Part shown: in pieces, positions 326 to 14,618 of the stretch
Layout of the letters: each line of letters starts with the position of its first letter
How positions within the stretch are numbered: position 1 is the stretch's first letter
NCBI GenBank assembly: GCA_031414595.1
Contig: JANNVX010000013.1
Span: 1-14,753 of the forward strand
Reading direction: 5' to 3'
DNA length: 14,753 nt
DNA from: Deinococcales bacterium
GTDB lineage: Bacteria > Deinococcota > Deinococci > Deinococcales > JAAFIG01
The notes under the pieces: generated by a model
Databases searched by the model: none
The model's input: only the letters and a program-made list of their open reading frames with translations
What the model was told of the DNA's origin: nothing
Made by a program: the position numbers and the translations under genes

Positions 326-807
326 AGCTTAAACAAATACGAAACCTCGAGCAAGACCGCCGAACCAATTTTTTCGGTGCGGGAATCATCCAACACCCCG
401 CCCATGTGTTCATAAAAACCTCGAGTTGGATTGTCTTCAAGCACCCAAAGCGATAAGGTTTTTGCGCCTTGGGCTTTTGCGTTCTCGAGTGCAGTAAGCC
501 ACAATTGTTTGCCAAGTCCAGAACCTTGAAACGCCTTTAGCAAGTACAAAGTAAGTATTTCAGCTTCTGAGCCTTGCATCGTCTGGCTACAAAATCCAAT
601 CAGAGCATTTGCTTTCAGTGCCACAAAAACTTTTACTTTTGGATTTGCCAAAGTCCGTTGCCACTGAAATTCTCGAGATTCGGCAGTGATGATGTTGTAC
701 AGCACATCATCGGGAATTAAGCCCGTATAGGTTTCTTGCCAAGACTGGACATGAACTCGAGCCAAAAAAGGAATATCGGATAAAACTGCTTCACGAATCA
801 AGAACAT
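322..807 (-). CDS. GNAT-family N-acetyltransferase
   Basis: 161 aa with acetyl-CoA motif A (LYLLKAFQGSGLGKQL) and C-terminal LWVLEDNPTRGFYEHMGG. Possible RBS AAGGTGA lies 6 nt before the ATG. Confidence 0.92.
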   Translation of the reverse strand: MFLIREAVLSDIPFLARVHVQSWQETYTGLIPDDVLYNIITAESREFQWQRTLANPKVKVFVALKANALIGFCSQTMQGSEAEILTLYLLKAFQGSGLGKQLWLTALENAKAQGAKTLSLWVLEDNPTRGFYEHMGGVLDDSRTEKIGSAVLLEVSYLFKL

Positions 808-987
808 AGGACTTCACCTTGAGCAGATGATACAGCCTCCAATGCCTCGGTGGTTTACGCACACTGCGCCTCAAGGATTAGCTGCCAAACCGTGCTAAAG
901 TAACTCTTGCTGGGCAATCATACCGCAAAGGTTGAACTATTCATTGAGGTCACAAATTTAGATTGTACCGAAGAAAAGGAGGAATTC

Positions 988-1338
988 ATGAGAGAATTAT
1001 GTTACGCCTTGTTTCACTGCGACCCGTTCACCGAACCACCATTTGAGTTTGAACTGGGATTCAGTGACCACAGCACTTTCAGTATCAACGGATGCGATCA
1101 TATACCAGACGCACTCGAGAAACTGGACTTGCACTGCACAGCAGAAAGCATCATAAAAGCAGTTCACTTCACCTTGCTTTACCCCATTTATTTAAAAGCA
1201 ATGGAATCAGATGTTGAAAATAAAATGCACATGATAGCCTCACTGATTAAAACTCAAGCTGACGATAACAAATGGAATTTTGGTCGTATTGGTGGGTATA
1301 CCGGCATGACACCTGAAAGTTACTTGTCAAACGGATAG
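988..1338 (+). CDS. Hypothetical protein (116 aa; ORF track extends it to TTG 907)
   Basis: Open frame with strong RBS AAGGAGG (976-982) before ATG 988. Possible extended -10 TGCTAAAGT at 893-901. No family recognised. AT-richer than its neighbours and on the opposite strand. Confidence 0.55.
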   Translation: MRELCYALFHCDPFTEPPFEFELGFSDHSTFSINGCDHIPDALEKLDLHCTAESIIKAVHFTLLYPIYLKAMESDVENKMHMIASLIKTQADDNKWNFGRIGGYTGMTPESYLSNG

Positions 1339-1404
1339 CCAATAAAGAACATCGGAAAGCACACCTCACGAATCAAAAACATAAGCCCTTAACTCGAGCA
1401 AATG
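1338..1404 (-). repeat. Degenerate direct copy of the GNAT gene 5' end and upstream sequence (761-829)
   Basis: Manual alignment gives about 52/69 identities with two single-base gaps. The minus strand reads ATG TTT TTG ATT CGT GAG (MFLIRE), identical in protein to the GNAT N-terminus, then frameshifts. Confidence 0.75.
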
Positions 1405-1466
1405 CGTGAGCCGAACCGCATTAACGGTTTTAGCGTTCTGTTCCCGCTCGAGCCAATAGGCTTCCA

Positions 1467-1769
1467 TCAATCTTCCACACGAATCAAACGCCCATAGATT
1501 CCATTTCGACCAATCCAGCCATTGATCCCACCGCGATTATTGCCAATCAAAAAACGTTCTTTGTCTGTCGCCATAATCAAATGCAAATACTGATTACCAT
1601 GCACTTTGCACAACACAATATCGCCAACCTTGAGTACACTTGGGTCAACAGGCTCAACTGTACATAACTGCTTTGATTCGATTTTACCAGTCATTGAATG
1701 ACCATGCGGACGAAACGAGACCGTTTGACCTTCTTGTAATGTTGCAATCAACATTGTTGCCCAGCCCAT
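1467..1769 (-). CDS. Small S24/S26 peptidase-like protein
   Basis: 100 aa with G.SM motif (PHGHSM), LKVGDIVL, YLHLI and IGNNRG, resembling the LexA/signal-peptidase-like fold. Leaderless -10 TAGCAT (1776-1781, minus strand) lies 6 nt before the ATG. Confidence 0.7.
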   Translation of the reverse strand: MGWATMLIATLQEGQTVSFRPHGHSMTGKIESKQLCTVEPVDPSVLKVGDIVLCKVHGNQYLHLIMATDKERFLIGNNRGGINGWIGRNGIYGRLIRVED

Positions 1770-1817
1770 GAGTACATGCTACATGGGCAAAGGCAACGAG
1801 CCAATACGACAAGTGGC

Positions 1818-4208
1818 TTACGAATCTCGAATCTCGAGTCCAGCATTTCGCATCGCTGTAATTACATTCTGGAACGCTGCCCCAACTTCTTCATCGGTCA
1901 GGGTTCGGCTCTGCGCTCGCCACGTCATGGTAATTGCGGTGCTGCGCTTACCATGCCCAATCCGTTCGGATTCAAAGACATCAAACGGCTGAACGCTCTC
2001 GAGAAAATCCCCTGCCGCATTTTTGGTAATTTCCTCGAGTTTTGAATACGGCAAACTCTTATCGGCAATAATAGCCAAATCCCGAATCGCGGCGGGTTGA
2101 CGGCTTGGGTCGGCAAATGCCCATGCTCGAGATGGAAGCGGCAAACGAATTTCGGCAAGCACAATGTTGCTTGGTAACTCGAGCGCAGCCGCGACACTCG
2201 GATGCACCGCGCCGATAATGCCCACGAACGCCCCGTTGTACTCGAGCGCCCCTGCAATTCCGGGGTGTAAGCACTCGGGTTTATGCTGTACGTGTTTTTC
2301 TATTGGCACGACTTTGAGGTCATCACCCAGTTTAGCCGCCATAGACTCGAGCAAACCCTTAAAGCCGTAAAAACCGCCAGCCATTCCAGCTTGCCAAGTT
2401 TTAGAACTCAAGTCGCCCATCAAAAGCGCTCCAAGTCGTTCTTCCTCGAGGTCAAGCGTTGGAAAAACCCGTCCAACTTCAAACAGCAATACATTCTTGG
2501 CTTGCAGATTGGTTTTGGCAGCATTAAGTAAACTGCCAATCAAACACGGACGAAGGTGGGTGCGTTCCGAACTCTGAGCATTTCGTAACTCGAGAATCGG
2601 TTCTGGCAGTTTCATGATTCGCATTTCTTCTGGGCTGGTGAAGCTATACGAAACAATTTCTTGAAAACCCAAGCCCACAAGCGCGTTTTTGAGTTCTCGA
2701 GTGCGATTATATGGCTCGGATGTGCTGCGCGTTAGGTCGTTGACTTTCATGTTTGGCAGGGTTTCGGGGATGGCATCGTAACCCAAGACTCGAGCAATTT
2801 CTTCGGTTAAGTCCTCAGGGATGTCCATGTTCACGCGGTAGGTTGGGGCGTGAACTTTCCAAGGACTGGTCTCTGCTTCAACAATAAAACCCAGTCGCTC
2901 GAGGGCAGATTGCATCTCATCCCAAGAAAAATGAGTTCCAAGGTACTGATTGACAAATTCTGGACGAAGCTCAATCACATTTTTTGGTTTTTCACCACCA
3001 ATATCACGGTGTCCCTCGAGAACCACACCACTACAAGCTGCCTGCACAATTTCCATATAGCGGTTAGCAGCCCAAACTGGCAGGTTCGGGTCTACACCGC
3101 GTTCGTAGCGGTACAGGGCATCAGTGACAATCCCCAAACGCCGTGCCGTCAAGCGCATTCGTACTGGATTCCAATGTGCCACCTCGAGAATCACATCGGT
3201 TGTACCGGCTTGAATACTCGAGTATTTTGCACCAAGCATACTGCCAATGCCCACGGTTTTGGATTCGCCATTTACGGGTGTAGAAACTAGTAAATCCTTA
3301 GGGCTGCATTGGTACTCGAGACCATCCAAACCAAGCAGTTTTTCATTTTCTAGCGCGTCACGCACAATAATTTTATTTTCGGGAATATCACGCGCATCAT
3401 ACGCCGCACTCGGTTGCCCAAGTTCAAGCATCACGTAATTACTGGCATCCACCAAGGCACTAATCGGACGCATTCCACACAGACTCAGACGGCGTTGTAA
3501 CCATGCTGGGCTGGGCTGATTCTTGACACCTTGAATCACTCGAGCCACAAAACGGTCACAGTCTTTGTTCGGGTCTAATTCGATTTGCACAGGGAAATTA
3601 TCATCATGCACCGACTCGAGACCAAGCGATGGTGGTTTTAACTCAAGGTTCAGTTTTGCAGCTAAATCTCGTGCAATGCCCAAAACACTAAGCGCATCGG
3701 CTCGGTTTGGCGTAATTTCAACATCCAACACGTAGTCTTCTGCCCATAAGCTCGAGAGTGATGTACCCGCTTTAGCGTTATGGATAGGCAACTCGAGTAA
3801 ACCTGCACCATAATCACTAATGCCAAGTTCTTTTGGGCTACACGCCATACCCCATGAGGTTAGCCCTTGCACCAGACGCTCCTCGACCAGTTTGCCTTGG
3901 ATGGTGGTGTCGGGCGGTGCAATTGCCACACCCACACCAGTTTTGGCGTTCGGCGCACCTGTGATTATTTGCTTAGGTAACTCGAGACCAACATCTACTT
4001 GGAGTTGGTATAAATGCGTTTCGGGAATGGCACTGCACTCGAGAACCACACCAAAAATCACGTCTTCGGGGGGTGCAGGAAACTCGACAATTTCTTCGAC
4101 ACCAGTACCAAGCATGGCTAGAATCGGCTCTAGGTTATGCGGATTATTGTTAATGGCTTTTGGAAGTTCGGGTAAAAGTTCAACCAACCAAGAATACGGT
4201 ATTTTCAT
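1818..4208 (-). CDS. pheT: Phenylalanine--tRNA ligase beta subunit
   Basis: 796 aa with MKIPYSWL start, tRNA-binding OB fold (IITGAPN, GMACSPKELG), EITPNRADALSVLGIARD, B3/4 (NYVMLELGQP), B5 (EDLTEEIARVLGYD) and C-terminal FDX-ACB (RDLA...RTLTDEEV). RBS AGGAG. Confidence 0.98.
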   Translation of the reverse strand: MKIPYSWLVELLPELPKAINNNPHNLEPILAMLGTGVEEIVEFPAPPEDVIFGVVLECSAIPETHLYQLQVDVGLELPKQIITGAPNAKTGVGVAIAPPDTTIQGKLVEERLVQGLTSWGMACSPKELGISDYGAGLLELPIHNAKAGTSLSSLWAEDYVLDVEITPNRADALSVLGIARDLAAKLNLELKPPSLGLESVHDDNFPVQIELDPNKDCDRFVARVIQGVKNQPSPAWLQRRLSLCGMRPISALVDASNYVMLELGQPSAAYDARDIPENKIIVRDALENEKLLGLDGLEYQCSPKDLLVSTPVNGESKTVGIGSMLGAKYSSIQAGTTDVILEVAHWNPVRMRLTARRLGIVTDALYRYERGVDPNLPVWAANRYMEIVQAACSGVVLEGHRDIGGEKPKNVIELRPEFVNQYLGTHFSWDEMQSALERLGFIVEAETSPWKVHAPTYRVNMDIPEDLTEEIARVLGYDAIPETLPNMKVNDLTRSTSEPYNRTRELKNALVGLGFQEIVSYSFTSPEEMRIMKLPEPILELRNAQSSERTHLRPCLIGSLLNAAKTNLQAKNVLLFEVGRVFPTLDLEEERLGALLMGDLSSKTWQAGMAGGFYGFKGLLESMAAKLGDDLKVVPIEKHVQHKPECLHPGIAGALEYNGAFVGIIGAVHPSVAAALELPSNIVLAEIRLPLPSRAWAFADPSRQPAAIRDLAIIADKSLPYSKLEEITKNAAGDFLESVQPFDVFESERIGHGKRSTAITMTWRAQSRTLTDEEVGAAFQNVITAMRNAGLEIRDS

Positions 4209-4702
4209 AAATTCTCCTGTAATTGCGGAGTCAGTGACTCCGTAAACGAATGTTCCTCAAGACTTAAACTAAAACGTGCTGAAAGTGGTTTTTCACTAAA
4301 CCCTCGAGCCTCATAAAAACCCGTTTGATACGATTTCTTATCTCGCCAATTATTAAGTGCTAACCTCGAGCAGCCCCTTTTAATTGCCTCGAGTTTAATC
4401 GCTTCAAGCAAAGCTGTCCCAGCGCCAAGGCTCGAGAATTGGGCATGAACAAATAAATTACTGATAAACCCCTCAAGTGGTGCTGTGAGCGGCACAAACC
4501 AATGCGCCATCATAAAACCAATCACTCGAGACTCGAGTTGTGCAACCAGCACAGTTCGTTCAGAAGTTGTACTAAGACTCGAAGATATTTTCTGCTCGAG
4601 AATAAGTAAAGTTTCTTTTTTGTAACGCAGATATTCCTCGAGACTGTGCAGAATTTCAGCAATGGCTCGAGCATCGGCAGGTTGGGCAGGGCGGATGGTC
4701 AT
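4205..4702 (-). CDS. GNAT-family N-acetyltransferase
   Basis: 165 aa with MTIRPAQPADA start, motif A (LFVHAQFSSLGAGTALL) and GFYEARGF. The stop overlaps the pheT start (ATGA). GGAG RBS at 4712-4715. Confidence 0.88.
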   Translation of the reverse strand: MTIRPAQPADARAIAEILHSLEEYLRYKKETLLILEQKISSSLSTTSERTVLVAQLESRVIGFMMAHWFVPLTAPLEGFISNLFVHAQFSSLGAGTALLEAIKLEAIKRGCSRLALNNWRDKKSYQTGFYEARGFSEKPLSARFSLSLEEHSFTESLTPQLQENL

Positions 4703-4719
4703 GGAAGTGAACTCCTACG

Positions 4720-4762
4720 AACTCCCCCCGCCTTCGGCGACCCCCTCAAAAGCGAGGGGGTT
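4720..4762. repeat. Left structured inverted repeat flanking the DUF559 gene
   Basis: AACTCCCCCCGCCTTCGGCGACCCCCTCAAAAGCGAGGGGGTT is 40/43 identical to the reverse complement of 5165-5207. It contains hairpins CGCC-TTC-GGCG and ACCCCCTC-N6-GAGGGGGT. Confidence 0.92.
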
Positions 4763-4791
4763 TGGTGTGGGAATGGGTTTAGAATGTTAGG

Positions 4792-5166
4792 GTGCAACGT
4801 TTCAAGTACAACAAAAAACTGACTGCTCGAGCGCAGGAATTGCGGTTTGAGATGACCGAACCTGAGAAAAAGCTGTGGTATCAATGTTTGCGGTTGCGCT
4901 CTGAACGATGGTTGCGGCAACGCCCCATTGGGAATTTCGTACCCGATTTTTATTGTTCCTCGAGAAGGCTGATTGTTGAAGTTGATGGTTTGCAGCACCA
5001 CACGCGAGAAGGTCTGGTAAAAGATGCCGAGCGCACCGCGTTTCTTGAAGGTCTTGGAATCAAAGTAATCCGTTTTACCAACCATGAAGTAATGAACAAC
5101 TTTCAAGGCGTTTGTCAAAAAATTCAAATAGAAATAGAAACACAATCCCAAACTCCCCAGCCCTAA
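4792..5166 (+). CDS. DUF559 / Vsr-like (very-short-patch-repair-like) endonuclease domain protein
   Basis: 124 aa with ARAQELRFEMTEPEKKLW, RQRPIGNFVPDFYC, LIVEVDGLQH, DAERTAFLEGLGIKVIRFTN. Leaderless -10 TAGAAT (4780-4785) lies 6 nt before the GTG. Confidence 0.92.
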   Translation: MQRFKYNKKLTARAQELRFEMTEPEKKLWYQCLRLRSERWLRQRPIGNFVPDFYCSSRRLIVEVDGLQHHTREGLVKDAERTAFLEGLGIKVIRFTNHEVMNNFQGVCQKIQIEIETQSQTPQP

Positions 5167-5207
5167 CCCCCTCTTTTTCGAGGGGGTCGCCGAAGGCGGG
5201 GGGAGTT
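5165..5207. repeat. Right structured inverted repeat flanking the DUF559 gene
   Basis: AACCCCCTCTTTTTCGAGGGGGTCGCCGAAGGCGGGGGGAGTT is the inverted partner of 4720-4762. AACTCCCC (5151-5158) can also pair with GGGGAGTT (5200-5207). Confidence 0.92.
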
Positions 5208-5260
5208 GCCCCCAACGCCAACACAACAACTTTTGCATATCTTTCATACTACCCTCGAGT

Positions 5261-5572
5261 TTATTCGTGTATTTCAAATGGTTTTCCTGCCTCAAGCGGT
5301 TGCCAGCCACTCGCTAGGGCTTTGCGTATCCAAGTTTCGACTTCCTTGGGTAAAACGATGTGGTGTTCTTTACAATCTTTTTTCAAATCAAGCCAAACAT
5401 CATAGTATTCTTGCTCGAGGTAGACAAATAGAGTTGTACTAGGTTTTTGTTGTGCAGCAAGAACTAAAGTGAGCTTTTCTTGTTGTTGGTCTATTTTGCG
5501 CCAACGAATCTGCCAAAAGAATTGAATTCCTTCAACAGTAATTCTTCTCGAGCCGCGTTTCCTAAGCGCCAT
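5261..5572 (-). CDS. Hypothetical protein (103 aa)
   Basis: The start overlaps the pheS stop (TAATG). MALRKRGSRRITVEG...F.WQIR and IRKALASGWQP...GKPF look like a conserved uncharacterised family. Function not recognised. Confidence 0.78.
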   Translation of the reverse strand: MALRKRGSRRITVEGIQFFWQIRWRKIDQQQEKLTLVLAAQQKPSTTLFVYLEQEYYDVWLDLKKDCKEHHIVLPKEVETWIRKALASGWQPLEAGKPFEIHE

Positions 5573-6582
5573 TACTCGAGCGCTCCCCTGAATTGCTTTA
5601 AGACCCGCAAATCATTCTGAAAAAAGTATCGAATATCTGGCACACCATACTTAATCATGGCGACGCGCTCGATGCCTAAGCCAAAAGCAAAACCGCGCTG
5701 CCCAGCATAAACCTCGTCGCCTCGTAACTTGCAGACTTCTTCAAAAACCCGAGGATGCACCATGCCACTGCCGCCTAACTCGAGCCATTTGGATTGCCCC
5801 GTGCGTTTGTTTTCCCAGTAGACCGCAAAGTCGGCGCTTGGTTCAGTAAATGGGTAGTAACTGGGCTGAAAACGCACTTTGCTGGTCTCGCCAAATAAGC
5901 CCTTCGCCATTTCCTCGAGTGTACCTTTGAGGTCAGACATGGTGATATTTTTACCAACTGCCAGCCCCTCGAGTTGATGAAACATCGCTTCGTGGGTGGC
6001 ATCCACGGCTTCAAAGCGGTAGGTTTTGCCCGGCACAACAATCCGAAAAGGTGGTTCAAAGGCTTGCATGAACCGAGCCTGCATTGGGCTGGTGTGGGTG
6101 CGTAAAACCCGCCCATCGGTCAGCCAAAAGGTATCCCAGAGGTCTCGAGCCGGATGCCAACTGGGGATGTTCAGGGCATCAAAATTGTACAACTCGGTTT
6201 CGACTTCTTGCCCTTGTACCACTTGATACCCTAAGCCTTTGTAAATGTTGCAGAGGTCATCAATAATGCGGGTCAGTAAATGAAAGCCACCAGTTTGAAA
6301 AGCCATTCCGGACAGGGTCACATCCAGACTTTCGCCAGCCAGTTTTGCCTCGAGTGCGGCGTTTTTGAGGCTTGCTTCTTTGGTGTCGAATAGTGCCTCG
6401 AGTTCGGTTTTAATCATATTTAATGCCGCACCGCGAATTTTCCTGTCATCGGGCGTGAGGTTGCCTAACGTTTTTAATTCGGCGGTCAGTAAGCCTTTTT
6501 TGCCAAGGTATTTGACCTTAATTTCTTGTAATTCTGGGAGGCTCGAGGTAGGGGCAATCTCAAGGGTTGCTTGGTTAATCAT
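5572..6582 (-). CDS. pheS: Phenylalanine--tRNA ligase alpha subunit
   Basis: 336 aa with YLGKKG, NFDALNIP..HPARD..DTF, LRTHTSPMQ, motif 2 (PGKTYR...DATH...FHQLEGL), YYPFTEPS and motif 3 (GFAFGLGIER). RBS AAGGAG. Confidence 0.98.
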   Translation of the reverse strand: MINQATLEIAPTSSLPELQEIKVKYLGKKGLLTAELKTLGNLTPDDRKIRGAALNMIKTELEALFDTKEASLKNAALEAKLAGESLDVTLSGMAFQTGGFHLLTRIIDDLCNIYKGLGYQVVQGQEVETELYNFDALNIPSWHPARDLWDTFWLTDGRVLRTHTSPMQARFMQAFEPPFRIVVPGKTYRFEAVDATHEAMFHQLEGLAVGKNITMSDLKGTLEEMAKGLFGETSKVRFQPSYYPFTEPSADFAVYWENKRTGQSKWLELGGSGMVHPRVFEEVCKLRGDEVYAGQRGFAFGLGIERVAMIKYGVPDIRYFFQNDLRVLKQFRGALE

Positions 6583-6692: not shown

Positions 6693-6698
6693 GAGTTC

Positions 6699-6727
6699 AT
6701 GTTATCGGGCATTGTTGCTCGAGTCAA
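6699..6727 (-). promoter_or_regulatory. Sigma70-type promoter for the pheS leader
   Basis: Minus strand TTGACT (6727-6722), 17-nt spacer, TAACAT (6704-6699). Confidence 0.8.
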
Positions 6728-6769
6728 GAGTGAATCCATATTGCCGAAACCTAGGGTAAACTGTTGCCT

Positions 6770-7693
6770 ATGAAAATCATTTTGGATTGCGACCCCGGGC
6801 ATGATGATGCCTTGGCAATCATGTTGGCACTGTCTAGCCCCGAACTCGAGGTGCTGGGAATTACCGTCACCTATGGCAATGTCGGTTTAGAAAACACCCT
6901 GCGTAATGCCTTAAAAATTCGGGAACTCTGCGGTTCAAACGTGCCAGTCTACGCCGGTGTGCCATTGCCGCTCGTCTCGAGCCGAATTTCGGCAGAGTTT
7001 GTCCATGGGCGCAGCGGTTTGGATGGTCCTGAGTTACCCGAACCTAAACGCGGGGCAGAGGAGACCCGTGCGGTGGATTTTATGATAGATTCGATTCTGG
7101 CACACCCGCACGAAGTGACGCTCTGCCCAGTTGGTCCAATGACCAATCTTGCACTGGCGATGCGTCTCGAGCCAAAAATCGTGCCGCTTATTAAGCAAAT
7201 TGTTCTGATGGGTGGCAGTACAGGCTTAGGGAATTGGTCGCCAGCCGCAGAATTTAATATTCTCTGCGACCCTCATGCGGCGAAAATTGTCTTTGAATCG
7301 GGTTGTGACATCACCATGTTTGGCTTAAACGTCACCCATCAGGCGTTGGCACTGCCGCAGCACATTGAGGCAATTCGGGACAATGGCAACAAAACCAGTC
7401 TGGTGGCAGCCGAACTGCTCGAGTTTTTTAAGGTTGCCTATGCCAAGCGCTATGGTTATGCTGGTCCGGCACTGCACGACCCATGTGTGATTGCCTTTTT
7501 ATTAAAACCCGAACTCTTTACCACCGAATTTTTGCATGTCGTGGTGGATGACTCGAGCGGTGCGTCTTTTGGGCGAACCGTGGTGGATGTGTACGGTGTG
7601 ACTCAACATAAACCCAATACCACGGTGGCAATGATGGTGGATGCCGATGGTTACTTTGCACTTCTTGCCGAGCGCTTGGCGTTACTGCCTTAA
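6770..7693 (+). CDS. Inosine-uridine-preferring (IUNH) family nucleoside hydrolase
   Basis: N-terminal DCDPGHDD Ca-binding motif, VHGRSGL, GPMTNLA, LMGG, AEFNILCDPHAA, LHDP. ATG 6770 is preferred over TTG 6764 because -10 TAAACT (6757-6762) lies 7 nt upstream. Confidence 0.95.
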   Translation: MKIILDCDPGHDDALAIMLALSSPELEVLGITVTYGNVGLENTLRNALKIRELCGSNVPVYAGVPLPLVSSRISAEFVHGRSGLDGPELPEPKRGAEETRAVDFMIDSILAHPHEVTLCPVGPMTNLALAMRLEPKIVPLIKQIVLMGGSTGLGNWSPAAEFNILCDPHAAKIVFESGCDITMFGLNVTHQALALPQHIEAIRDNGNKTSLVAAELLEFFKVAYAKRYGYAGPALHDPCVIAFLLKPELFTTEFLHVVVDDSSGASFGRTVVDVYGVTQHKPNTTVAMMVDADGYFALLAERLALLP

Positions 7694-7699
7694 GCTACT

Positions 7700-7728
7700 T
7701 TCAAAATTGTGGGTCAATGCAGTATTGT
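7700..7728 (+). promoter_or_regulatory. Putative promoter of the GTPase operon (leaderless first gene)
   Basis: TTCAAA (7700-7705), 17 nt, TATTGT (7723-7728), then 6 nt to ATG 7735. Confidence 0.55.
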
Positions 7729-7734
7729 CTTAAT

Positions 7735-8157
7735 ATGGCGACAAAACCTAATCCTGTGCCTTCGACAAGCAGCGACCCCTCTGTACCTCGGGCTGACCCC
7801 AGTCTCGAGCAAGTGCGGGATATTCTTTTTGGTCAGCAGCAACGCAGTTTTAACAATGACCTGTCGGTGCTGGAAGCCCGAGTCTTGGCACTCGAGAAGC
7901 GTTCTGAGGATTTGGAACGCGAACTGGCAGCTACCAAGGATGAACTTGAGGCACGGATTCGCTCCGAGAGCCAACGCCAAGATAAGGCACTGAACGCCGA
8001 GTCGAATCGTTTGAATAAGTTAATCGAAACCGAAGTTAGCCAATTACAAGCCCAGCATCAGCAGGCAATGGCAGATTTGGAGACGTTGCGCTTGAAGGAT
8101 AGGGCAAAACTAGCAGCCCTGATGGTCAGTTTGGCGCAGCAACTCGAGGCGGATTAA
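7735..8157 (+). CDS. Coiled-coil protein, first gene of the small-GTPase operon
   Basis: 140 aa from ATG 7735. Pro/Ser-rich N-terminus, then LEQVRDILFG and heptad-rich E/L/Q/R helices. Confidence 0.8.
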   Translation: MATKPNPVPSTSSDPSVPRADPSLEQVRDILFGQQQRSFNNDLSVLEARVLALEKRSEDLERELAATKDELEARIRSESQRQDKALNAESNRLNKLIETEVSQLQAQHQQAMADLETLRLKDRAKLAALMVSLAQQLEAD

Positions 8158-8160
8158 AGC

Positions 8161-9498
8161 GTGGTTTCACCTCGAGAAGATAGTATTTCCGAACCGTCTT
8201 TTGATGTGTTGCGGGAAGTGCTACTTTCCGAGGAACGCCACCGATTGGGGTCGGTAGAACACCGCTTAAATGATCCCGAGGTTCGTACCACAGAGCTTGC
8301 CGAGGTGTTGAGTGATGCCTTAAATTTGGCAGCCAAAGAACCTCGTTTTGCTCGGGTGCTTGCGCCAACCATCGAAAAAGCCTTGTTTGAATCGGTCAGA
8401 GCTAACCCCGAAGGACTTGCCGATGCGCTTTTTCCAGTCCTAATGCCAACCATTCGGCGGGTGGTCTTAAGTTTACTCGAGCGTACTTTTGAAAATTTTA
8501 ATCGGGTGCTTGATGTGTCGGTCTCGCCACGCAGTTTTGCTTGGCGGCTCGAGTCTTGGCGTACAGGTAAGCCTTTTGGTGAAATTGTTTTGTACCATAC
8601 CGTCCAGTACCGTGTTGAGCAAGTGCTGCTGACGCACCGAGAGACTGGTTTACTGGTCGAACAAGCGGGGGTTAGTAACTCCGATGCCGATTTGGTCAGT
8701 GCCATGCTGACCGCGATTCAAGATTTTGCCAGAGACAGTTTCCAAATGGGCGACGCAACCATTCGCACTTTCAAAATTGGTGATTTAACGGTGCTGATTG
8801 AAACCTCGCCCCATGCCACGATAGCTGCCGCCGTGCGTGGTACACCTCCAGCCGAGTATAGCGACAATTTAGCGGTGGCATTAGAAACGATTCAATTGCG
8901 TTTTTCATCTGATTTATCGGGTTTTCAGGGTGACACCAGTGTTTTTGAAGCTGCCAAACCCATTTTAGAAGGTTGCTTAACCACGGTTTATATGCAGCAA
9001 CCTGCCCAAAAAAGCAAAGCCGCGCCAAATCCAATGCAGCGTTTTGGTTTGCCTGTGCTTGGTCTTGCCCTGCTGTTAGGGGCGGCTTGGTGGGGTTGGA
9101 ATGCCTATCAAGCTGGGCTTTGGCAGGGGGCGGTGCAAGCGTTGCGGCTCGAGCCGGGCTTTTTGATTATCGAGGATAGCCAAAAACGTTTGGTGGGCTT
9201 ACGTGACCCGTTGGCTCGAGAGCCACAAGTGGTGCTGGATTCACTAGGTTATCCAGATGTACCTCAAGTCTGGGGAGAATTCCAATCCTTAGACCCGCAG
9301 TTAATTGTCGAACGCGCACGGGTGGCACTCGAACCAGCCTCGAGTACGGCGGTGGAATTACGTGGACAAACCCTTGTGTTTAGCGGACAAGCTACCGAAG
9401 CCTGGGTAAAACGCGCTAAACTAATTGCTCGTGGTTTATCGGGAGTATCAAATGTTGACTCGAGAGCCTTAGAATTGGTGGAAGCGGAGAAAAAATGA
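8161..9498 (+). CDS. Single-pass membrane protein: helical N-terminus, roadblock/longin-like region, TM helix, BON-like C-terminus
   Basis: 445 aa with YRVEQVLLTHRETGLL...DADLVSAMLTAIQDF, a hydrophobic stretch FGLPVLGLALLLGAAWWGW, and C-terminal LVFSGQA...ARGLSGVSNVD. Domain assignments are by eye. Starts 3 nt after the previous stop. Confidence 0.78.
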   Translation: MVSPREDSISEPSFDVLREVLLSEERHRLGSVEHRLNDPEVRTTELAEVLSDALNLAAKEPRFARVLAPTIEKALFESVRANPEGLADALFPVLMPTIRRVVLSLLERTFENFNRVLDVSVSPRSFAWRLESWRTGKPFGEIVLYHTVQYRVEQVLLTHRETGLLVEQAGVSNSDADLVSAMLTAIQDFARDSFQMGDATIRTFKIGDLTVLIETSPHATIAAAVRGTPPAEYSDNLAVALETIQLRFSSDLSGFQGDTSVFEAAKPILEGCLTTVYMQQPAQKSKAAPNPMQRFGLPVLGLALLLGAAWWGWNAYQAGLWQGAVQALRLEPGFLIIEDSQKRLVGLRDPLAREPQVVLDSLGYPDVPQVWGEFQSLDPQLIVERARVALEPASSTAVELRGQTLVFSGQATEAWVKRAKLIARGLSGVSNVDSRALELVEAEKK

Positions 9499-10007
9499 GT
9501 CAAGAGACAGTTTTACAATTTAAGATGTGTTTACTCGGCGGCTCGGCTGTCGGTAAATCCAGTCTGATTGCACGTTTTGTGCATAGTATTTACTCAGGGC
9601 AGTACCACACCACGGTGGGTGTGCGAATCGAAAAGAAATTGGTTCGCACCGAAAAAGGGGCAGCCAACTTAATGATTTGGGACATCAACGGTGAGGATGC
9701 CTATCAAAAAGTCCAAACCACTTATCTGCGTGGCATGGCTGGCTACTTTTTGGTGGCTGACGGCACACGTGAGCAAACCGTAGACGAATGCCTAAAACTT
9801 CATGCTCGAGCGGTCGAGGGTTTTGGGGCGTTGCCAGCCTATTTACTGATTAACAAATCCGATCTTCAACACGAGTGGCGGGTGGATATGGCACAACTTG
9901 AATCGCTTGGAATTACCGTCTTAAAAACCAGTGCTTTAACTGGCGAGAATGTCGAATTGGCATTTTATCACCTTGCCCAACAAATGGTTGCTAAGGTTAA
10001 ATCATGA
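9495..10007 (+). CDS. Ras-superfamily (Rab-like) small GTPase
   Basis: 170 aa with G1 GGSAVGKS, G2 YHTTVG, G3 WDINGE, YLRG, G4 NKSD, G5 TSA.TGENV..AF. ATGA overlaps at both ends. Confidence 0.95.
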   Translation: MSQETVLQFKMCLLGGSAVGKSSLIARFVHSIYSGQYHTTVGVRIEKKLVRTEKGAANLMIWDINGEDAYQKVQTTYLRGMAGYFLVADGTREQTVDECLKLHARAVEGFGALPAYLLINKSDLQHEWRVDMAQLESLGITVLKTSALTGENVELAFYHLAQQMVAKVKS

Positions 10008-11212
10008 ACACCATTCCAGCCGAGTTACTCGAGAGTGCGGGATGGATTGCCTTTGAATGGCAGTTAAGCGGCGAACTGACCCTACTGACTCGAGCGCCTA
10101 AATGGATGCAGTCTTTAATTCAAAATGGGCAACTAGAAGCCACGGTTTCGCCGTTCTTAGAAAATTTTTTAATAGACGCACGGGTTTTTTGGGCAGAAGA
10201 AAAAATCGGGCGGCTACGCAGTGGTGTTTGGCTTGAACCGACCGACAAAGGCACAGAACAAGCCCTCGAAGCCACGGCAGTCCACAGCGAGGACAGGGCT
10301 TTTTTGGTGATTGAAATTCTGGGCGGCAAATTTAACGAGCAAACCAAAATCCTCCAAGCTGCCAGAGAATCGCACCTTGAATCCCAGCGCCTAAGAAGCG
10401 AATTACGAGAATTAAAAGACCAAAGTAAAAACTTAGAACGTGCCATGCTCGAGTTGGCTGGAAAAATGAACATCAGTAGTCAAATTCAAGCCGAAGCCCT
10501 GCTGCACGATGCTAAACGGGCTGCTATCCGCTCCGAGCAAATCCAAAACCAGTACCTTGCCCAACTCGCCCATGAATTGCGAACCCCGTTAAGTGTGATT
10601 CTGTGGATTTCGGATACGCTCGAGGATACTTCCCTAGACCCAGAACAGCGTGAGCAACTGCTGCAACTCGAGAACGCGGCTAAGCACCTAAACTTGGTTA
10701 CATCCGATTTACTCGATTTCTTTAAGCTCGAGGCAGGCGCTAAACCACCGTTGAGAGCCTTATTTAACTTGGATGAACTTGCCCGTTCTTGTATGCGCGA
10801 CCTGAGTGAAAGTGCCAAAGCCAAAGGCGTAGACATCAACGTTCACGCCCCGCAAGAATTACCGATTGCGGCTGACCAACGTCAACTGCGACAGGTGCTG
10901 CATAACCTGCTGGTCAATGCCCTAAAATTCACCGATACAGGCGGTAGTATCGTGATTGAAGCCCTTGAAGTCGGCAGCAATTTAGAGCTTCGGGTCATAG
11001 ACACGGGCATCGGTATTGCCCCAGCCGATATTCCCAAATTATTCCAGCCATTTGGCAAACTCGAGAACCCCGAGTACAACCCAGACGGCACGGGTTTAGG
11101 TTTGGTGATTGCCCAAAGAATCGTTGAAGCCCACGGCGGCAGCATTAAAATCTCGAGCGCTCCGAGCTTGGGCAGTACCTTTACGGTGATTCTGCCACAA
11201 GTGTTGAATTAA
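10004..11212 (+). CDS. Soluble sensor histidine kinase (unassigned N-terminal domain, coiled coil, HisKA, HATPase_c)
   Basis: H-box LAHELRTPL, N-box NLLVNALKFT, G1 DTGIGI, F-box LFQPF, G2 GTGLGL. No TM helix and no receiver domain seen. Confidence 0.95.
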   Translation: MNTIPAELLESAGWIAFEWQLSGELTLLTRAPKWMQSLIQNGQLEATVSPFLENFLIDARVFWAEEKIGRLRSGVWLEPTDKGTEQALEATAVHSEDRAFLVIEILGGKFNEQTKILQAARESHLESQRLRSELRELKDQSKNLERAMLELAGKMNISSQIQAEALLHDAKRAAIRSEQIQNQYLAQLAHELRTPLSVILWISDTLEDTSLDPEQREQLLQLENAAKHLNLVTSDLLDFFKLEAGAKPPLRALFNLDELARSCMRDLSESAKAKGVDINVHAPQELPIAADQRQLRQVLHNLLVNALKFTDTGGSIVIEALEVGSNLELRVIDTGIGIAPADIPKLFQPFGKLENPEYNPDGTGLGLVIAQRIVEAHGGSIKISSAPSLGSTFTVILPQVLN

Positions 11213-11219
11213 AGGGCAG

Positions 11220-11250
11220 GAGGAAGGAGAAAATAGCTTTCTCTTTTCTC
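11220..11250 (+). terminator. Possible hairpin after the GTPase operon
   Basis: GAGGAAGGAGAAA-ATAGC-TTTCTCTTTTCTC forms a 13-bp stem with 2 G:U pairs. No clear downstream U-tract. Confidence 0.35.
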
Positions 11251-11307
11251 ACCCGTTTAGTGGCTTGGATTGCTGCTTGAGACCATAAATTCACGTAAAC
11301 TTAGGGC

Positions 11308-12414
11308 GTGAAAAGATTTTTGCTTTTGGTTGGTGCGGTTTTGGTGGCTTGTGCGCCAGCTAGTATGCGTTCGCTCGAGCCTTTTGTTGAACGCAAACCC
11401 GACCCGATTCTTGACCAAGGGGCGCACAAAGCCCCGATTGAATGGTGGTACTTAAACGCCCATCTCGAGACCAAAACGGGTACAAGAGGCATTGCGGCGG
11501 CTATTTTTCAGGTTTATATCCCAGATGGCACGCCGTATAACCTTGCCAGCCTGTTTCCAGATGCTTTGTTCTTTGGGCATTACAGCATTGTGGATAAACA
11601 GACTGGTTTGTTTCAAAGCAGCGAATACAGCACTGTGCCAAGGGCTAAACCCGATGTTGCCACCAAAGTTGGTTTTGCCGACACAAACCGTATGAATGTC
11701 GGACTCGGTGATTGGCGCATGACTCGGGAAGCGAACGGTATTTACACCGCTAAGTTTGGCATCAAAAACCGCGAAACCGTAGACCTCAAACTCCGACCGC
11801 TTCGCCCAGAAGCGATTCATGGACCCGGTTGGAGTGGCAACCTCGAGACAGGACGCATGTATTACACCAGTGCCACCCGCCTCGAGATTAGTGGCACGTA
11901 CAATGGCGAACCAGTAAGCGGGATTGCTTGGCTGGATCATCAATGGGGCGGCGGCTTAGGTGCAAGTGGCGATGGCAGTGCCAGTTCCTCGCCGCGTTGG
12001 GATTGGATGAGCATGAACCTCGAGGATGGACGCGACATTATGCTCTACAGTTTACGCAACGAAAAAGGCGAGGTCTCGGATCGTTTTGCCAGTATTGTCA
12101 AACCCGACGGCAGCACCACCGAAGAACGCAACTTTGAAATGCAGCCTTGGGATTGGTGGGTTTCGCCAAGCAGTGGTGGCAAGTATCCCGTGCGTTGGTA
12201 TGTGCGCCTCAAAGATGGCACAGTCTTAAACATTAAACCAGTGGTCAATGCCCAAGAAGTCGAGGCAAGGGCTACGGCTGGTTTTAACTATTACGAAGGT
12301 GCAATTAGTATTTCTGGAACGACTCGAGGCGTTGGCTATATGGAACTCACCGGCTACACCACGATGAAAAATCCATTTGCCAATCCGTTCTCGTTTATTG
12401 AACCGACAAAGTGA
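11308..12414 (+). CDS. Lipoprotein of the AttH / CrtC (lipocalin-like) family
   Basis: Lipobox LVAC after a signal peptide, EWWYLNAHL, YYTSATRL, AWLDHQW, WDW...L.DG...MLY, YP..W, YYEG, GYMELTGY. Leaderless -10 TAAACT (11296-11301). Confidence 0.88.
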   Translation: MKRFLLLVGAVLVACAPASMRSLEPFVERKPDPILDQGAHKAPIEWWYLNAHLETKTGTRGIAAAIFQVYIPDGTPYNLASLFPDALFFGHYSIVDKQTGLFQSSEYSTVPRAKPDVATKVGFADTNRMNVGLGDWRMTREANGIYTAKFGIKNRETVDLKLRPLRPEAIHGPGWSGNLETGRMYYTSATRLEISGTYNGEPVSGIAWLDHQWGGGLGASGDGSASSSPRWDWMSMNLEDGRDIMLYSLRNEKGEVSDRFASIVKPDGSTTEERNFEMQPWDWWVSPSSGGKYPVRWYVRLKDGTVLNIKPVVNAQEVEARATAGFNYYEGAISISGTTRGVGYMELTGYTTMKNPFANPFSFIEPTK

Positions 12415-12457
12415 GGGCAGCAAAGAGCAATGATTTTTCCTCCTTTCTTTTTTGTCC

Positions 12458-13756
12458 TTAAACCATAGCTTCAAAGGTAATTTCAATCCTCAGTCCACCT
12501 TGTTTGGCTTGTCCAAATTTAAGTGCTGCTCTGTGGTTACTGACCACGGCGGCAACCAAGGCTAGACCTAAGCCTGAACCGGCAATACTTTGTAGATTTG
12601 TTCCACGCTGAAATGGTTGTTGCAAGCGTTCTAAATCGGTGGCTGCGATGCCGTTTCCATCATCGGCAATGCTTAAGATATTGGATTCTAAGCTGACCCA
12701 AATATGTCCGTCTGGCTGACCGTACTTAATCGCATTCTCGAGTAAATTATAAATCGCAATCCGTAAACTGCTTGGGTCAGCTTTGATTTGGCTTGGCTCG
12801 AGATTCAATTCAAAACCAATGGATTTTGTGGCTGCCATGTGTTGCAGACTTTCCACAGTATCAAAAACCAGATCGGATAAACTTAGTTTTTGCAATTGAA
12901 TCGGTTGATAAGACCGTGCCAGTGCCAGTAAACTCTCAATGGTGGTGTTCAAATCAGTAGCCGTTTCCTCGAGTTCGCGCAGTGCATTTTGGTATTCTTG
13001 GGGTGTGCGGGTTCGCTCTAAGGTCAGGCTGGTGCGTCCGCGCAGTACGGTTAAAGGGGTGCGGAGTTCATGCGCCGCCGCCAGTGCAAAAGCCCGTTCG
13101 CGTTCAATCGTGTGTTCTAATTTCTCGAGCATGGCGTTGACAGTTTGGGTTAAGCGTGCCATTTCATCATTGCCATTGGTTTGCGGGACTCGCCAATCAC
13201 TTTTTCCTGAGGTAGCAATGCTTAATGCAAGGCGAGTAACAGCATCTACGGGGCGCAAAGCTCGGTCTGAAATAATGTACCCTGCGATTAAACCAAGGCA
13301 AAGCACAATTGGAATTGAAATCAGTAAACCTTGAGCCGCATTTGTCAGGCTATTTATTGTTTCAATTTGCGAACGAGCCGCTTGTATCCACCCGCCTTTG
13401 GGTATGGCTTGGGTATAAATTCTGATGTCTTCTATGGTTTGAAAGCCAATCTCGAGTTTTGAAAGGATTTGCAATGTTCCAAAACGATCCAAGTGTTGTC
13501 CTTTGGCATCAAAGACCGTTAAAGTAGTCGCTCCGGGTAACTGGGCTTGTAAACGTTCCGTCGGAGTTTCAATTTGGGTTTTGCCGTTGTCATCATCAAG
13601 TTGGGTCATGGCTAACTGAGCCGCTTCTTGTAAGGAAGTATCCAGTGATTGATGCAAACTCGAGCGCAGGGCTAAAAATAAGGCAAAGTTACCAAGCAAT
13701 AAAATCAGAGCGCAAAGTACACCATAATAAAGCGTTAAACGCCAACGTAGACTCAT
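12458..13756 (-). CDS. Membrane sensor histidine kinase (2 TM, HAMP, HisKA, HATPase_c)
   Basis: SLRWRLTLYY plus TM1, TM2 before RALRPV, HAMP DEMARL...N.ML, AAHELRTPL, NLLENAIKY, DDGNGI, GSGLGL. Confidence 0.95.
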   Translation of the reverse strand: MSLRWRLTLYYGVLCALILLLGNFALFLALRSSLHQSLDTSLQEAAQLAMTQLDDDNGKTQIETPTERLQAQLPGATTLTVFDAKGQHLDRFGTLQILSKLEIGFQTIEDIRIYTQAIPKGGWIQAARSQIETINSLTNAAQGLLISIPIVLCLGLIAGYIISDRALRPVDAVTRLALSIATSGKSDWRVPQTNGNDEMARLTQTVNAMLEKLEHTIERERAFALAAAHELRTPLTVLRGRTSLTLERTRTPQEYQNALRELEETATDLNTTIESLLALARSYQPIQLQKLSLSDLVFDTVESLQHMAATKSIGFELNLEPSQIKADPSSLRIAIYNLLENAIKYGQPDGHIWVSLESNILSIADDGNGIAATDLERLQQPFQRGTNLQSIAGSGLGLALVAAVVSNHRAALKFGQAKQGGLRIEITFEAMV

Positions 13757-14424
13757 CCAAGCCGCCCAAGTCGGTAGCCCATGCCTCGAACAGTTTCGAT
13801 GATTTGATCTGATAATTTACGCCGCAAAGTCGAAACAAAGACATCCACGGCTTTTAATTCGACTTCGCTCTGGCTTTGCCAAACCCGTTCAATCAGACTC
13901 GAGCGCGAAAAGGCTCGGTTGGGATTTAAGGCAAAACATTCAAGCAACGCATATTCACGCGGGGTTAATGCCACTGGCTGACCTTGCAGTAAAATTTCAT
14001 GAGCAATTAAATCAAGCACATAACCGACGGGTAAACGAATTTGATTGCGACTTTCACCTTTGGAACGCCGTACTAAAGCCCGAATCCGAGCGCGCAGTTC
14101 CCTAAAATCAAAAGGTTTAGCCAAGTAATCATCTGCACCAGAATCCAAACCCTCGAGTTTAGATTCGATGTCAGCTCGAGCCGTTAAAAAAAGCACTGGG
14201 GTTTTATTGCCATTGCCGCGTAAGCGCCTTGCCAGTAAAAAACCCGCTTCATGACCTTCGGGTAGCATCACATCAAGAATCAGTAAATCAAAAGCCTCGA
14301 GTGCCGCCATGCTCTCGCCGGTACTGGCATTGATGGCGTGTTCGACAACAAAATCATCTTCACTTAAACCATCTAAAATCAGTTTAGCAATCCGTGAATC
14401 ATCTTCAACCAGCAACAACTTCAT
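13753..14424 (-). CDS. OmpR/PhoB-family response regulator
   Basis: LLVEDD, ILDVMLP (phospho-Asp), FLTA, GADDYLAKPF, winged helix LTPREY...LRRKL...IETVRGMGY. ATGA overlap with the kinase. Leaderless -10 TAGATT (14431-14436, minus strand). Confidence 0.96.
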   Translation of the reverse strand: MKLLLVEDDSRIAKLILDGLSEDDFVVEHAINASTGESMAALEAFDLLILDVMLPEGHEAGFLLARRLRGNGNKTPVLFLTARADIESKLEGLDSGADDYLAKPFDFRELRARIRALVRRSKGESRNQIRLPVGYVLDLIAHEILLQGQPVALTPREYALLECFALNPNRAFSRSSLIERVWQSQSEVELKAVDVFVSTLRRKLSDQIIETVRGMGYRLGRLG

Positions 14425-14446
14425 GTGCTTAATCTAACGCGCCAAG

Positions 14447-14480
14447 GTTTTGATTGGGTAAATCTTTACCTAATCAAAAC
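14447..14480. promoter_or_regulatory. 16-bp inverted repeat in the divergent promoter region
   Basis: GTTTTGATTGGGTAAA-TC-TTTACCTAATCAAAAC, 15/16 complementary. Confidence 0.55.
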
Positions 14481-14503
14481 TTTTAATTGCAAAAATGCAG
14501 CCT

Positions 14504-14618
14504 ATGAAGGTTTCTCGAGAATCCCTATTTATGCTTACAATCACCGTACCACTGCTTATATTTGCAGTTCTAACTGTCGAAGTACAGAATCAAAAAGTTC
14601 TGAGTATAGACCAACTTA
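14504..14618 (+). pseudogene. 5' fragment of a membrane protein (possibly PAP2-phosphatase-like) interrupted by IS630
   Basis: ATG 14504 gives MKVSRESLFMLTITVPLLIFAVLTVEVQNQKVLSIDQL, with one hydrophobic helix. The frame then runs into the IS end and stops at 14635. The family guess rests only on the F..L...V.......D pattern. Confidence 0.5.

Follow-up and report, generated by a model that had tools for sequence, protein, structure and literature searches.

For thirty years, to our knowledge, work on highly iterated palindromes (HIPs) has been confined to cyanobacteria, and what they do is not yet settled. The cyanobacterial HIPs comprise HIP1 (GCGATCGC) and alternates such as GGCGCC, RCCGGY, GGGATCCC and others, hexameric ones among them (PMC4390886). 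HIP1 is described as conserved and quasi-periodic, it boosts transformation, an effect that depends on methylation, and it has been proposed to be an uptake tag (PMC13756078). The uptake sequences of Pasteurellaceae (USS) and Neisseriaceae (DUS), for which counts of 1,471, 765 and 1,892 per genome are given, roughly double their tripeptides and occupy poorly conserved residues (PMC2817400).

The hexamer CTCGAG in the analysed window, a stretch of 14,753 nt from a Deinococcales bacterium, is best read as an iterated palindrome resembling HIPs or uptake sequences, of which both the phylum and the motif are new and which is 3 to 7 times as dense as the HIPs of cyanobacteria. The features by which HIPs are described in PMC4390886 and PMC13756078 were found here as well: a short palindrome in lineage-wide excess (in the window and in related loci), spread by substitution, with copies in every frame as well as outside genes, conservation between orthologues and a spacing more regular than random. 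Unlike HIP1, CTCGAG belongs to the Deinococcota, has another sequence with a GC content of only 67 %, and is strongly avoided by a sister genus. HIP1 proper was rejected, the host being a Deinococcales relative and CGATCG having 0 copies in the window, so that GCGATCGC is impossible there. With USS and DUS, CTCGAG shares a lineage-wide excess common to related species, the use of all frames, an approximate doubling of the encoded peptides, amino-acid-changing substitutions and a scarcity of copies in foreign-looking genes (PMC2817400). An asymmetric uptake core of 9-12 nt with flank preferences was also rejected, as CTCGAG is palindromic and its flanks are weak. USS and DUS are asymmetric, 9-12 nt long and present at about 0.4-1 per kb, whereas CTCGAG is an exact 6-nt palindrome at about 7 per kb; moreover, an uptake preference has been demonstrated for them and is putative for CTCGAG. 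The sequence-only reading had named DUS and HIP1 as precedents, but the parallel is looser than proposed given a density several times above either. A Chi-like hotspot was rejected because a palindrome has no orientation and therefore no replication-linked skew.

CTCGAG is also the target of XhoI/PaeR7I-type restriction-modification. Restriction targets are normally avoided, as CTCGAG is in the Deinococcus loci (0.14x), whereas in the clade described below the same word is enriched 26-fold. It was therefore rejected as an avoided restriction-modification target, and any enzyme reading it would be no conventional restriction barrier against its own DNA. CTCGAG methyltransferases of both the m6A and the m5C kind exist (PMC12700378; PMC8112702).

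The sites and genes of the window are as follows, with the number of CTCGAG sites where applicable.

346..14519, no strand: span with all 94 sites, spaced 152 bp apart on average and from 7 to 600 bp overall, coefficient of variation (CV) 0.72
1393..1398, no strand: noncoding site in the spacer of convergent ORFs 907-1338 (+) and 1467-1769 (-)
1447..1452, no strand: noncoding site in the same convergent spacer, 907-1338 (+) / 1467-1769 (-)
5254..5259, no strand: noncoding site with the DUF559 ORF (+) on one side and a 103-aa ORF (-) on the other
6718..6723, no strand: noncoding site in the divergent spacer of pheS (-) and the nucleoside hydrolase gene (+)
14514..14519, no strand: noncoding site, 90 nt upstream of the gene for the response regulator
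322..807, minus: GNAT acetyltransferase gene, 5 sites (frames 2/3/0)
1818..4208, minus: pheT, 22 sites (frames 16/4/2), 9.2 per kb
4205..4702, minus: GNAT acetyltransferase gene, the densest gene, 9 sites, 18 per kb
4792..5166, plus: DUF559 (Vsr-like PD-(D/E)XK) ORF adjoining pheS, E 2.6e-30, 2 sites
5572..6582, minus: pheS, 8 sites (frames 6/1/1), 7.9 per kb
6764..14424, no single strand: nine further genes, 40 sites together and at least one in each; among them genes for a nucleoside hydrolase, a coiled-coil protein, a 445-aa protein, a Ras-like GTPase, two histidine kinases, a CrtC/lipocalin protein and a response regulator

The estimate of about 94 copies in the sequence-only reading proved exact on recounting, the outermost sites being 346-351 and 14514-14519. 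Base composition alone predicts 3.3 copies, and 200 dinucleotide-preserving shuffles gave 2.02 +/- 1.53 with a top value of 6, so none attained 94. CTCGAG is by a wide margin the most frequent hexamer of the window, the runner-up without overlap to it reaching 21 copies. The pentamers CTCGA (103) and TCGAG (99) lie nearly all within CTCGAG, which identifies the whole hexamer as the iterated unit. A maximal-order Markov model of the window predicts 77 copies, an expectation this high because the sub-words of the model consist of CTCGAG itself, and a dicodon-preserving shuffle is circular because CTC-GAG is itself one dicodon. Synonymous shuffling and resampling from background codon usage were used as coding nulls.

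In the 17 gene models of this analysis, 89 of the 94 sites are coding, in genes of both strands, with 57 read as CTC|GAG, 18 as xCT|CGA|Gxx and 14 as xxC|TCG|AGx. Synonymous shuffling of these genes yielded 9.7±2.8 sites (by frame 6.8, 2.3 and 0.9), and background-codon resampling yielded 3.0 in total. The five noncoding sites compare with 0.23 in shuffled noncoding segments, and none of 5000 shuffles attained five. Each of the three frames and the noncoding DNA thus stands 8- to 20-fold above codon-aware nulls, and since the excess occurs in every frame and between genes, a DNA-level process and not protein coding maintains the writing of CTCGAG. The earlier description of sites on both coding strands, in three frames and in intergenic DNA at 1393, 1447 and 6718 was therefore correct and is extended by 5254 and 14514. 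Its view that codon usage alone is insufficient also held under both coding nulls, and the loss of the excess under a codon-preserving shuffle, which it had named as a refutation, did not occur.

Such a pattern could in principle stem from a bias in codons, dipeptides or composition, or from an artefact confined to one assembly: 61 % of the window sites are CTC|GAG, Leu-Glu is a common dipeptide, and CTC and GAG are heavily used by Thermaceae. Apart from the frame-independent excess, however, CTC makes up just 16 % of the Leu codons in the window, and 57 of its 89 CTC codons lie inside CTCGAG. Deinococcus writes only 2 % of the Leu-Glu in the same proteins as CTCGAG, and the pattern is repeated in 18 independent metagenome-assembled genome (MAG) records. 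This explanation is already refuted, and its remaining probability is negligible.

The clade set was made up of 18 loci, all from MAGs of related uncultured Deinococcales, and covered about 21 kb per genome, with roughly 10 kb on either side of pheS. All 18 are rich in CTCGAG, at 4.7-9.1 per kb and a GC content of 0.45-0.62. Pooled, they contain 1773 sites in 260,098 bp, 26 times the expectation, distributed over the frames as 932, 322 and 300, plus 219 noncoding. Only 3 of 180 genes of at least 500 bp have no site. The remaining 63 hexamer palindromes occur at 0.41x. Deinococcus loci avoid other palindromes as well as CTCGAG, while in loci of Trueperaceae and Thermaceae CTCGAG is mildly over-represented (4.6x). 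The one-off variants of CTCGAG range from 0.55 to 2.0x in the clade, with CTTGAG at 1.28x; the exception is CTAGAG at 0.09x, which contains the generally avoided CTAG. CTCGAG is, with very high confidence in this descriptive part, a genuine highly iterated palindrome of the whole clade. The concern that the excess might be limited to the window is thereby removed; the lineage guessed beforehand agrees with Deinococcales MAGs as nearest relatives, and the proposed HIP-like iteration acts at the DNA rather than the codon level in codon-aware nulls and at 18 of 18 loci. The suggestion that such iteration might already have been reported was not borne out, as full-text literature searches found no earlier report of it.

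On the basis of crude gene calls, the density in the pooled loci is equal in coding (6.79 per kb) and noncoding DNA (6.98 per kb). This bears on the idea of an RNA-level signal, in which the self-complementary CUCGAG would serve as a pairing or nuclease site in transcripts of either strand. The palindrome is present in mRNA whichever strand is transcribed, and 4 of the 5 noncoding window sites could be in untranslated regions. Against this, neither frame nor strand has an influence, the window has no match to Rfam families, and Deinococcus avoids CTCGAG as a DNA palindrome together with other palindromes. An RNA-level signal is consequently regarded as very improbable.

As with uptake sequences, the proteome is reshaped. 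Clade proteins contain 1290 Leu-Glu dipeptides against 577 expected, and CTCGAG encodes 932 of these (72 %), where 9.7 % would be expected. Among peptides compatible with the other two frames, CTCGAG is realised in 323 of 627 and in 300 of 688. PheT has 20.6 Leu-Glu per protein within the clade and 8.5 outside, and many sites of pheT lie at positions where relatives outside the clade carry other amino acids. In PheS and PheT together, fewer than 10 % of the outgroup sequences carry compatible amino acids at 50 of 73 site positions, and 69 of these 73 positions are in ungapped and 4 in gapped columns. CTCGAG sites are thus written in place by point substitution and not by insertion, often with an amino-acid change. 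They favour poorly conserved residues only weakly in PheT (0.622 vs 0.670, p=0.046) and not significantly in PheS.

Parsimony over 11 clade taxa placed 16 of the 73 positions at the root, followed by 93 gains and 33 losses, and new sites continue to arise in every lineage. In ten comparisons of pheS/pheT and their flanks between the window and loci L002-L007, site retention was 0.45-1.00 while control hexamer identity was 0.15-0.48. For the closest pair, the window and L001 (93.4 % identity), retention of 0.76 and 0.87 has only a slight edge over control hexamers at 0.69. The orthologous conservation proposed as a check was therefore found against the more distant loci and weakly against the closest one.

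The over-representation of CCWGG in E. coli through Vsr/Dcm is a known case of a methylation-site palindrome enriched by DNA-level bias, but its effect is small and its deamination product is depleted, whereas CTCGAG stands at 26x without any depletion of CTTGAG. Very-short-patch-type repair would require m5C on the inner C together with a Vsr-like nuclease that restores CTCGAG from T:G mismatches in CTTGAG or CTCAAG. Several observations are compatible with it: m5C methylation of CTCGAG is known in Halorubrum sp. BOL3-1 (PMC8112702), the Vsr-like DUF559 ORF adjoins pheS, and CpG-transition variants are the most frequent differences at lost or gained sites. DUF559 was considered as a repair partner but is not linked to CTCGAG; homologues also adjoin pheS in five Deinococcus loci that avoid CTCGAG. 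Outside the motif, Leu-Glu pairs written CTT GAG (2.8x) and CTC GAA (2.2x) are similarly raised, so the central C carries no special signature. In a toy Markov model of site drive, a bias at the central CpG alone had a ceiling of 3.2x and emptied CTTGAG, while a bias of 5 at all positions gave 25x with one-off variants near 1x. As modelled, such repair as the sole cause is at odds with the observed hexamer counts, and we give it very little credence. The model suggests that the pattern needs an approximately five-fold bias favouring the intact hexamer over each of its one-off variants, across all six positions, one position being insufficient.

The best explanation overall would be a clade-wide iterated palindrome driven by transmission bias for the whole hexamer, a reading given slightly less than even confidence. 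Somewhat more tentative is the specific mechanism, by which a candidate CTCGAG-specific, probably dimeric, DNA-reading protein, such as an enzyme resembling a methyltransferase or a receptor for uptake or recombination, would give DNA carrying CTCGAG a transmission advantage in natural transformation or recombination. Alleles creating CTCGAG could then spread through molecular drive, and steric redundancy of close neighbours may account for the deficit of spacings below 20 bp (77 vs 226 expected). This proposal leans on the behaviour of uptake sequences in Pasteurellaceae and Neisseria, now also proposed for HIP1. Against it, the marginal uptake gain of one more site should be small at about 7 sites per kb, and Thermus reportedly takes up DNA without sequence preference. 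Among 122 representative proteins of the clade loci (about 260 kb, about 10 kb on either side of pheS), no DNA methyltransferase domain and no CTCGAG-reading protein was found.

Alternatively, direct selection may act on a distributed chromosomal function, with CTCGAG as a binding or methylation site needed every ~150 bp under weak purifying selection per site, for example in a nucleoid-organising, epigenetic or strand-discrimination system. The few genes without a site and the high cross-species retention would fit this, as would one-off variants near 1x, which mutation-selection balance predicts. The spacing is also more even than random and has few long gaps, with a CV below 1 in 14 of 17 loci (significant at P<=0.05 in 8 of 17) and a window CV of 0.72 (P=0.001 for so low a value under random placement). 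The quasi-periodic spacing of HIP1 has already been read as structural (PMC13756078). On the other hand, 20,000-35,000 sites would be required if the density holds over 3-5 Mb, each overriding amino-acid choice, and the repair-coverage argument of Elhai leads to roughly 1 site per kb rather than 7 (PMC4390886). The 122 proteins near pheS include no candidate for this function either, and direct selection is considered possible but rather unlikely. Even spacing and high retention are equally well explained by it.

Returning to transmission bias, CTCGAG could be a mark of kin DNA: a Deinococcales family would use the motif, probably methylated, to bias transformation or recombination towards its own lineage, while Deinococcus would purge it as a restriction target. 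This extension is speculative and distinctly unlikely. If true, a HIP or uptake-tag system would have arisen independently outside the cyanobacteria, the opposite fates of CTCGAG would mark, and perhaps enforce, a gene-flow barrier between lineages, and the drive would suffice to double one dipeptide proteome-wide.

Whatever its cause, CTCGAG provides a second, independent case of such iteration and a natural replicate, in another phylum, with another word, 3-7x denser and with a measurable effect on proteins. The explanations offered for HIP1, namely a ratchet linked to methylation, a tag for uptake or chromosome structure, are now open to tests of generality, and the contrast between the rich clade, the mildly enriched Trueperaceae and Thermaceae and the avoiding Deinococcus is available for gene co-occurrence analysis. 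In practical terms, CTCGAG distorts codon and dipeptide statistics, affects MAG binning and gene calling in the Deinococcales clade, and could act as a lineage signature in metagenomes.

Two minor observations concern the immediate surroundings of the sites. In the GNAT gene at 4205..4702, a pair of sites at 4525 and 4532 lies 7 bp apart. The flanks of CTCGAG are weakly biased, with G at position -1 at 0.34 and A at position -3 at 0.35.

The window contains exactly 94 copies of CTCGAG by direct count, spanning 346-14519, where 3.3 are expected from base composition. The excess claimed by the sequence-only reading is borne out, and it goes far beyond a curiosity of a single window. A set of 200 dinucleotide-preserving shuffles gave 2.02 ± 1.53 copies, with a largest value of 6. 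CTCGAG is the most frequent hexamer of the window by a wide margin. The words CTCGA (103 copies) and TCGAG (99) lie nearly always within it, and the 38 copies of TCGA outside it show no enrichment. Therefore, the unit is the complete hexamer. A longer hidden motif was rejected, since the flanks are weak (G at -1, 0.34; A at -3, 0.35; pooled over the window and its closest relatives), no extended word appears, and the top 10-mer reaches 6 copies.

A PheS scan with one genome per species provided 80 related loci. The most similar of them, 18 in number with PheS identities of 75-99%, are MAG records, all labelled Deinococcales or Deinococcota, the nearest sharing 93% DNA identity with the window over 5.8 kb; together with the window they are referred to here as the clade. 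All 18 are rich in CTCGAG (4.7-9.1 per kb at GC contents of 0.45-0.62), which is the top hexamer in each, and this contradicts a confinement of the excess to the window. Pooled, the clade holds 1773 sites in 260,098 bp, or 26x the base-composition expectation, a figure resting on about 21 kb per related genome. The 32 Deinococcus loci (L019, L021-L047, L049, L050, L052 and L059; 605,989 bp) are at the opposite extreme to this sister clade, with 29 copies (0.14x), an approximately seven-fold avoidance that suggests restriction pressure on the word. For 27 Trueperaceae, Thermaceae and unlabelled loci the pooled value is 4.6x, with an increase in every frame as well as in noncoding sequence, and this mild excess perhaps represents the phenomenon in a weaker or ancestral state. 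Two low-GC outgroups show 1.4x; L048 and L073 were omitted from these group-wise figures. CTCGAG is also the top hexamer in several of the Trueperaceae, Thermaceae and unlabelled loci L051, L054-L058, L060-L072 and L074-L080. All the other palindromic hexamers are strongly avoided, 38 of 64 being absent from the window, and the 63 others stand at 0.41x in the clade, 0.41x in Deinococcus and 0.88-0.89x in the other outgroups. Among the clade tetramers, GGCC (0.19x), CTAG (0.19x), TATA (0.23x) and CCGG (0.36x) are scarce.

The coding context of the sites was assessed with 17 Pfam-supported gene models in the window, which include:

pheT
pheS
two GNAT genes
4792-5166, plus strand: DUF559 ORF with a Vsr-like nuclease fold, between a GNAT gene and pheS
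nucleoside hydrolase
Ras-like GTPase
two histidine kinases
CrtC/lipocalin protein
OmpR-type regulator

Coding sequence holds 89 of the sites and noncoding DNA 5. The coding sites are distributed over the frames CTC GAG (57), xCT CGA Gxx (18) and xxC TCG AGx (14). CTC accounts for only 89 of 564 Leu codons, and 57 of these CTC codons sit within CTCGAG; out of 94 Leu-Glu dipeptides, 57 are encoded by it. The excess persists under the codon-shuffled nulls that the sequence-only reading had proposed, with 89 sites against 9.7 ± 2.8 (maximum 19 in 1000 synonymous within-gene shuffles; 6.8, 2.3 and 0.9 in the same frame order). Codon-order shuffling gave 4.1, and resampling of codons from their usage outside the motifs gave 3.0 ± 1.7. 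In noncoding DNA, the 5 copies compare with 0.23 expected, a count reached in none of 5000 shuffles. A maximal-order Markov model expects 77 copies, but the reasoning turns circular with this model and with a dicodon-preserving shuffle alike: the sub-words come from the motif, which forms a dicodon in its own right. Synonymous and background-codon nulls were used in their place. In clade proteins the dipeptide Leu-Glu is found 1290 times where the Leu and Glu frequencies predict 577, and it is written CTCGAG in 72% of cases against 9.7% expected; among the tripeptides compatible with the two other frames, 323 out of 627 and 300 out of 688 carry the motif. Codon or dipeptide bias as the cause is thus rejected by the codon-aware nulls, the frames, the noncoding excess and the clade Leu-Glu counts. 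The corresponding share of Leu-Glu written CTCGAG is 2% in Deinococcus (10.5% expected), 39% in Trueperaceae (12%) and 41% in Thermaceae (22%); the outer families thus share the pattern at lower strength, and Deinococcus has its opposite.

Site density in the clade is 6.79 per kb in coding sequence and 6.98 per kb in the rest, based on a crude annotation that picks the longest ORFs greedily from 90 aa upwards and mis-calls some regions. Among 180 clade genes at least 500 bp long, only 3 lack a site, and the site-poorest are a cytochrome oxidase subunit and foreign-looking low-GC genes. The low-GC mobile or accessory genes of related loci rank among the site-poorest, and DDE transposase, HNH and PIN genes lie amid housekeeping genes (L004 883-1797, L015 5511-6356, L014 1289-1846, L013 10127-10543). 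The window stretch 808-1817 has a lower GC content (0.44-0.46), with 1 site in ORF 907-1338, none in ORF 1467-1769 and two in the spacer between them. Neither ORF scores above its curated Pfam cut-off, 1467-1769 being weakly S24-like, and the stretch may be a more recent arrival.

The effect on proteins was followed in codon alignments restricted to sequences that span 95% or more of the query (80 of 81 for PheS, 60 of 70 for PheT), in which the clade has 73 distinct site positions. At 50 of these, motif-compatible residues occur in fewer than 10% of outgroup sequences; 10 positions are compatible in 10-50% of them, 9 in most, and 4 fall in gapped columns. At one PheT position, outgroups have W-S, W-A, Y-D or Y-K, most clade members carry CTC GAG, and two members have TTT GAA and TAT GAA. 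Per PheT protein, Leu-Glu numbers 20.6 within the clade and 8.5 outside. The lean of sites towards poorly conserved residues is weak in PheT (p=0.046) and not significant in PheS. Most clade PheS proteins end in Leu-Glu, with CTC GAG right before the stop (5575-5580 in the window); the aligned part of outgroup PheS ends at Leu, where the outgroup ends are clipped at the BLAST match.

The sites are conserved in orthologues beyond background. Across the pheS/pheT region, ten pairwise alignments show retention of 0.45-1.00 against a control-hexamer identity of 0.15-0.48, but the margin is small for the closest pair (0.76 and 0.87 against 0.69). Parsimony on a PheS+PheT tree, built with 12 of 49 available outgroups and showing its 11 clade taxa as monophyletic, placed 16 of the 73 positions at the clade root, followed by 93 gains and 33 losses, although the method is rough on such data. 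Site gains are clearly continuing, often in parallel. Spacings below 20 bp number 77 in the pooled data against 226 expected under random placement, with mid-range spacings in excess. Per locus, the test covered the 17 sources holding 30 sites or more, namely the window and all the loci but L003 and L011, 16 in number: the coefficient of variation is below 1 in 14 and significantly low in 8 (window 0.72, P=0.001), and short spacings are fewer than simulated in 16. A site pair exactly 7 bp apart (CTCGAGNCTCGAG; window 4525-4537) occurs 12 times in the clade, against 1 to 6 occurrences for each of the spacings from 8 to 11 bp and none for a spacing of 6.

The HIP-like reading of the iteration is supported, as the descriptive features of the class are found here. 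According to Elhai's HIP paper (PMC4390886), this class includes the hexamers GGCGCC and RCCGGY and typically reaches 1000-2000 copies per Mb; CTCGAG does not appear in that paper. The present case differs in its phylum and in its density, which is about 6,800 per Mb. It is not HIP1, the highly iterated palindrome of cyanobacteria, nor an uptake sequence of the classical asymmetric type, nor Chi-like, and in the clade it is not under the avoidance seen for restriction targets. The guess that such an iteration might already be reported found no match, as no description of it was found in the full-text literature, with subscription journals outside this coverage.

Several processes were considered as a source of the excess. 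Hypermutability of m5C at the central C was rejected because its signature is absent after allowing for strand and synonymy: among non-motif Leu-Glu, the synonymous single-transition neighbours CTC GAA (2.2x) and CTT GAG (2.8x) are both raised, a halo round the motif with no special central-C signature. One-off variants of CTCGAG range over 0.55-2.0x in the pooled clade loci, except for CTAGAG at 0.09x, a variant that includes CTAG, a word avoided in general. In a toy Markov substitution model on hexamers, a bias at central-CpG transitions only, of the very-short-patch type, has a ceiling of 3.2x and empties CTTGAG; CpG-confined repair is thus at odds with the measured values, which are 26x for the motif and 1.28x for CTTGAG. 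When the model favours gains of the complete motif and disfavours its losses by a factor of about 5, whatever the position, it yields 25x with one-off variants near 1x, as observed. On this model the force reads the whole hexamer, and the data would be compatible both with biased transmission and with weak selection that acts site by site to serve a distributed function. Biased transmission could operate through preferential uptake or recombination of motif-carrying DNA, or through repair keeping the motif-bearing strand. We infer transmission bias as the favoured explanation because the implied sites per genome are very numerous, because the proteome effects closely match those of uptake sequences as described in PMC2817400, and because HIP1, in PMC13756078, is reported to raise transformation, an effect that depends on methylation, and is proposed as an uptake tag.

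Methyltransferases for CTCGAG exist elsewhere, of m5C and m6A types, according to PMC8112702 and PMC12700378. In the clade loci around pheS, no reader protein was found, and no DNA methyltransferase domain is present among 122 representative proteins, one per cluster of at least 120 aa, drawn from 139 clusters without a window member; the window Pfam search took in the 14 clusters that do have one. DUF559 adjoins pheS in 6 loci of the clade and 5 of Deinococcus, and a role as a motif-specific repair enzyme was rejected since these five Deinococcus loci avoid the motif. A longer antisense ORF (4699-5310) overlapping the DUF559 ORF is probably spurious. No structured RNAs were found in the window, and the related loci contain four tRNA genes. 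Elsewhere in the window, four tightly packed plus-strand genes with overlapping stops and starts (7717-11212), encoding a coiled-coil protein, a 445-aa protein without a Pfam match, a Ras/Roc-like small GTPase and a histidine kinase, look like one signalling operon.
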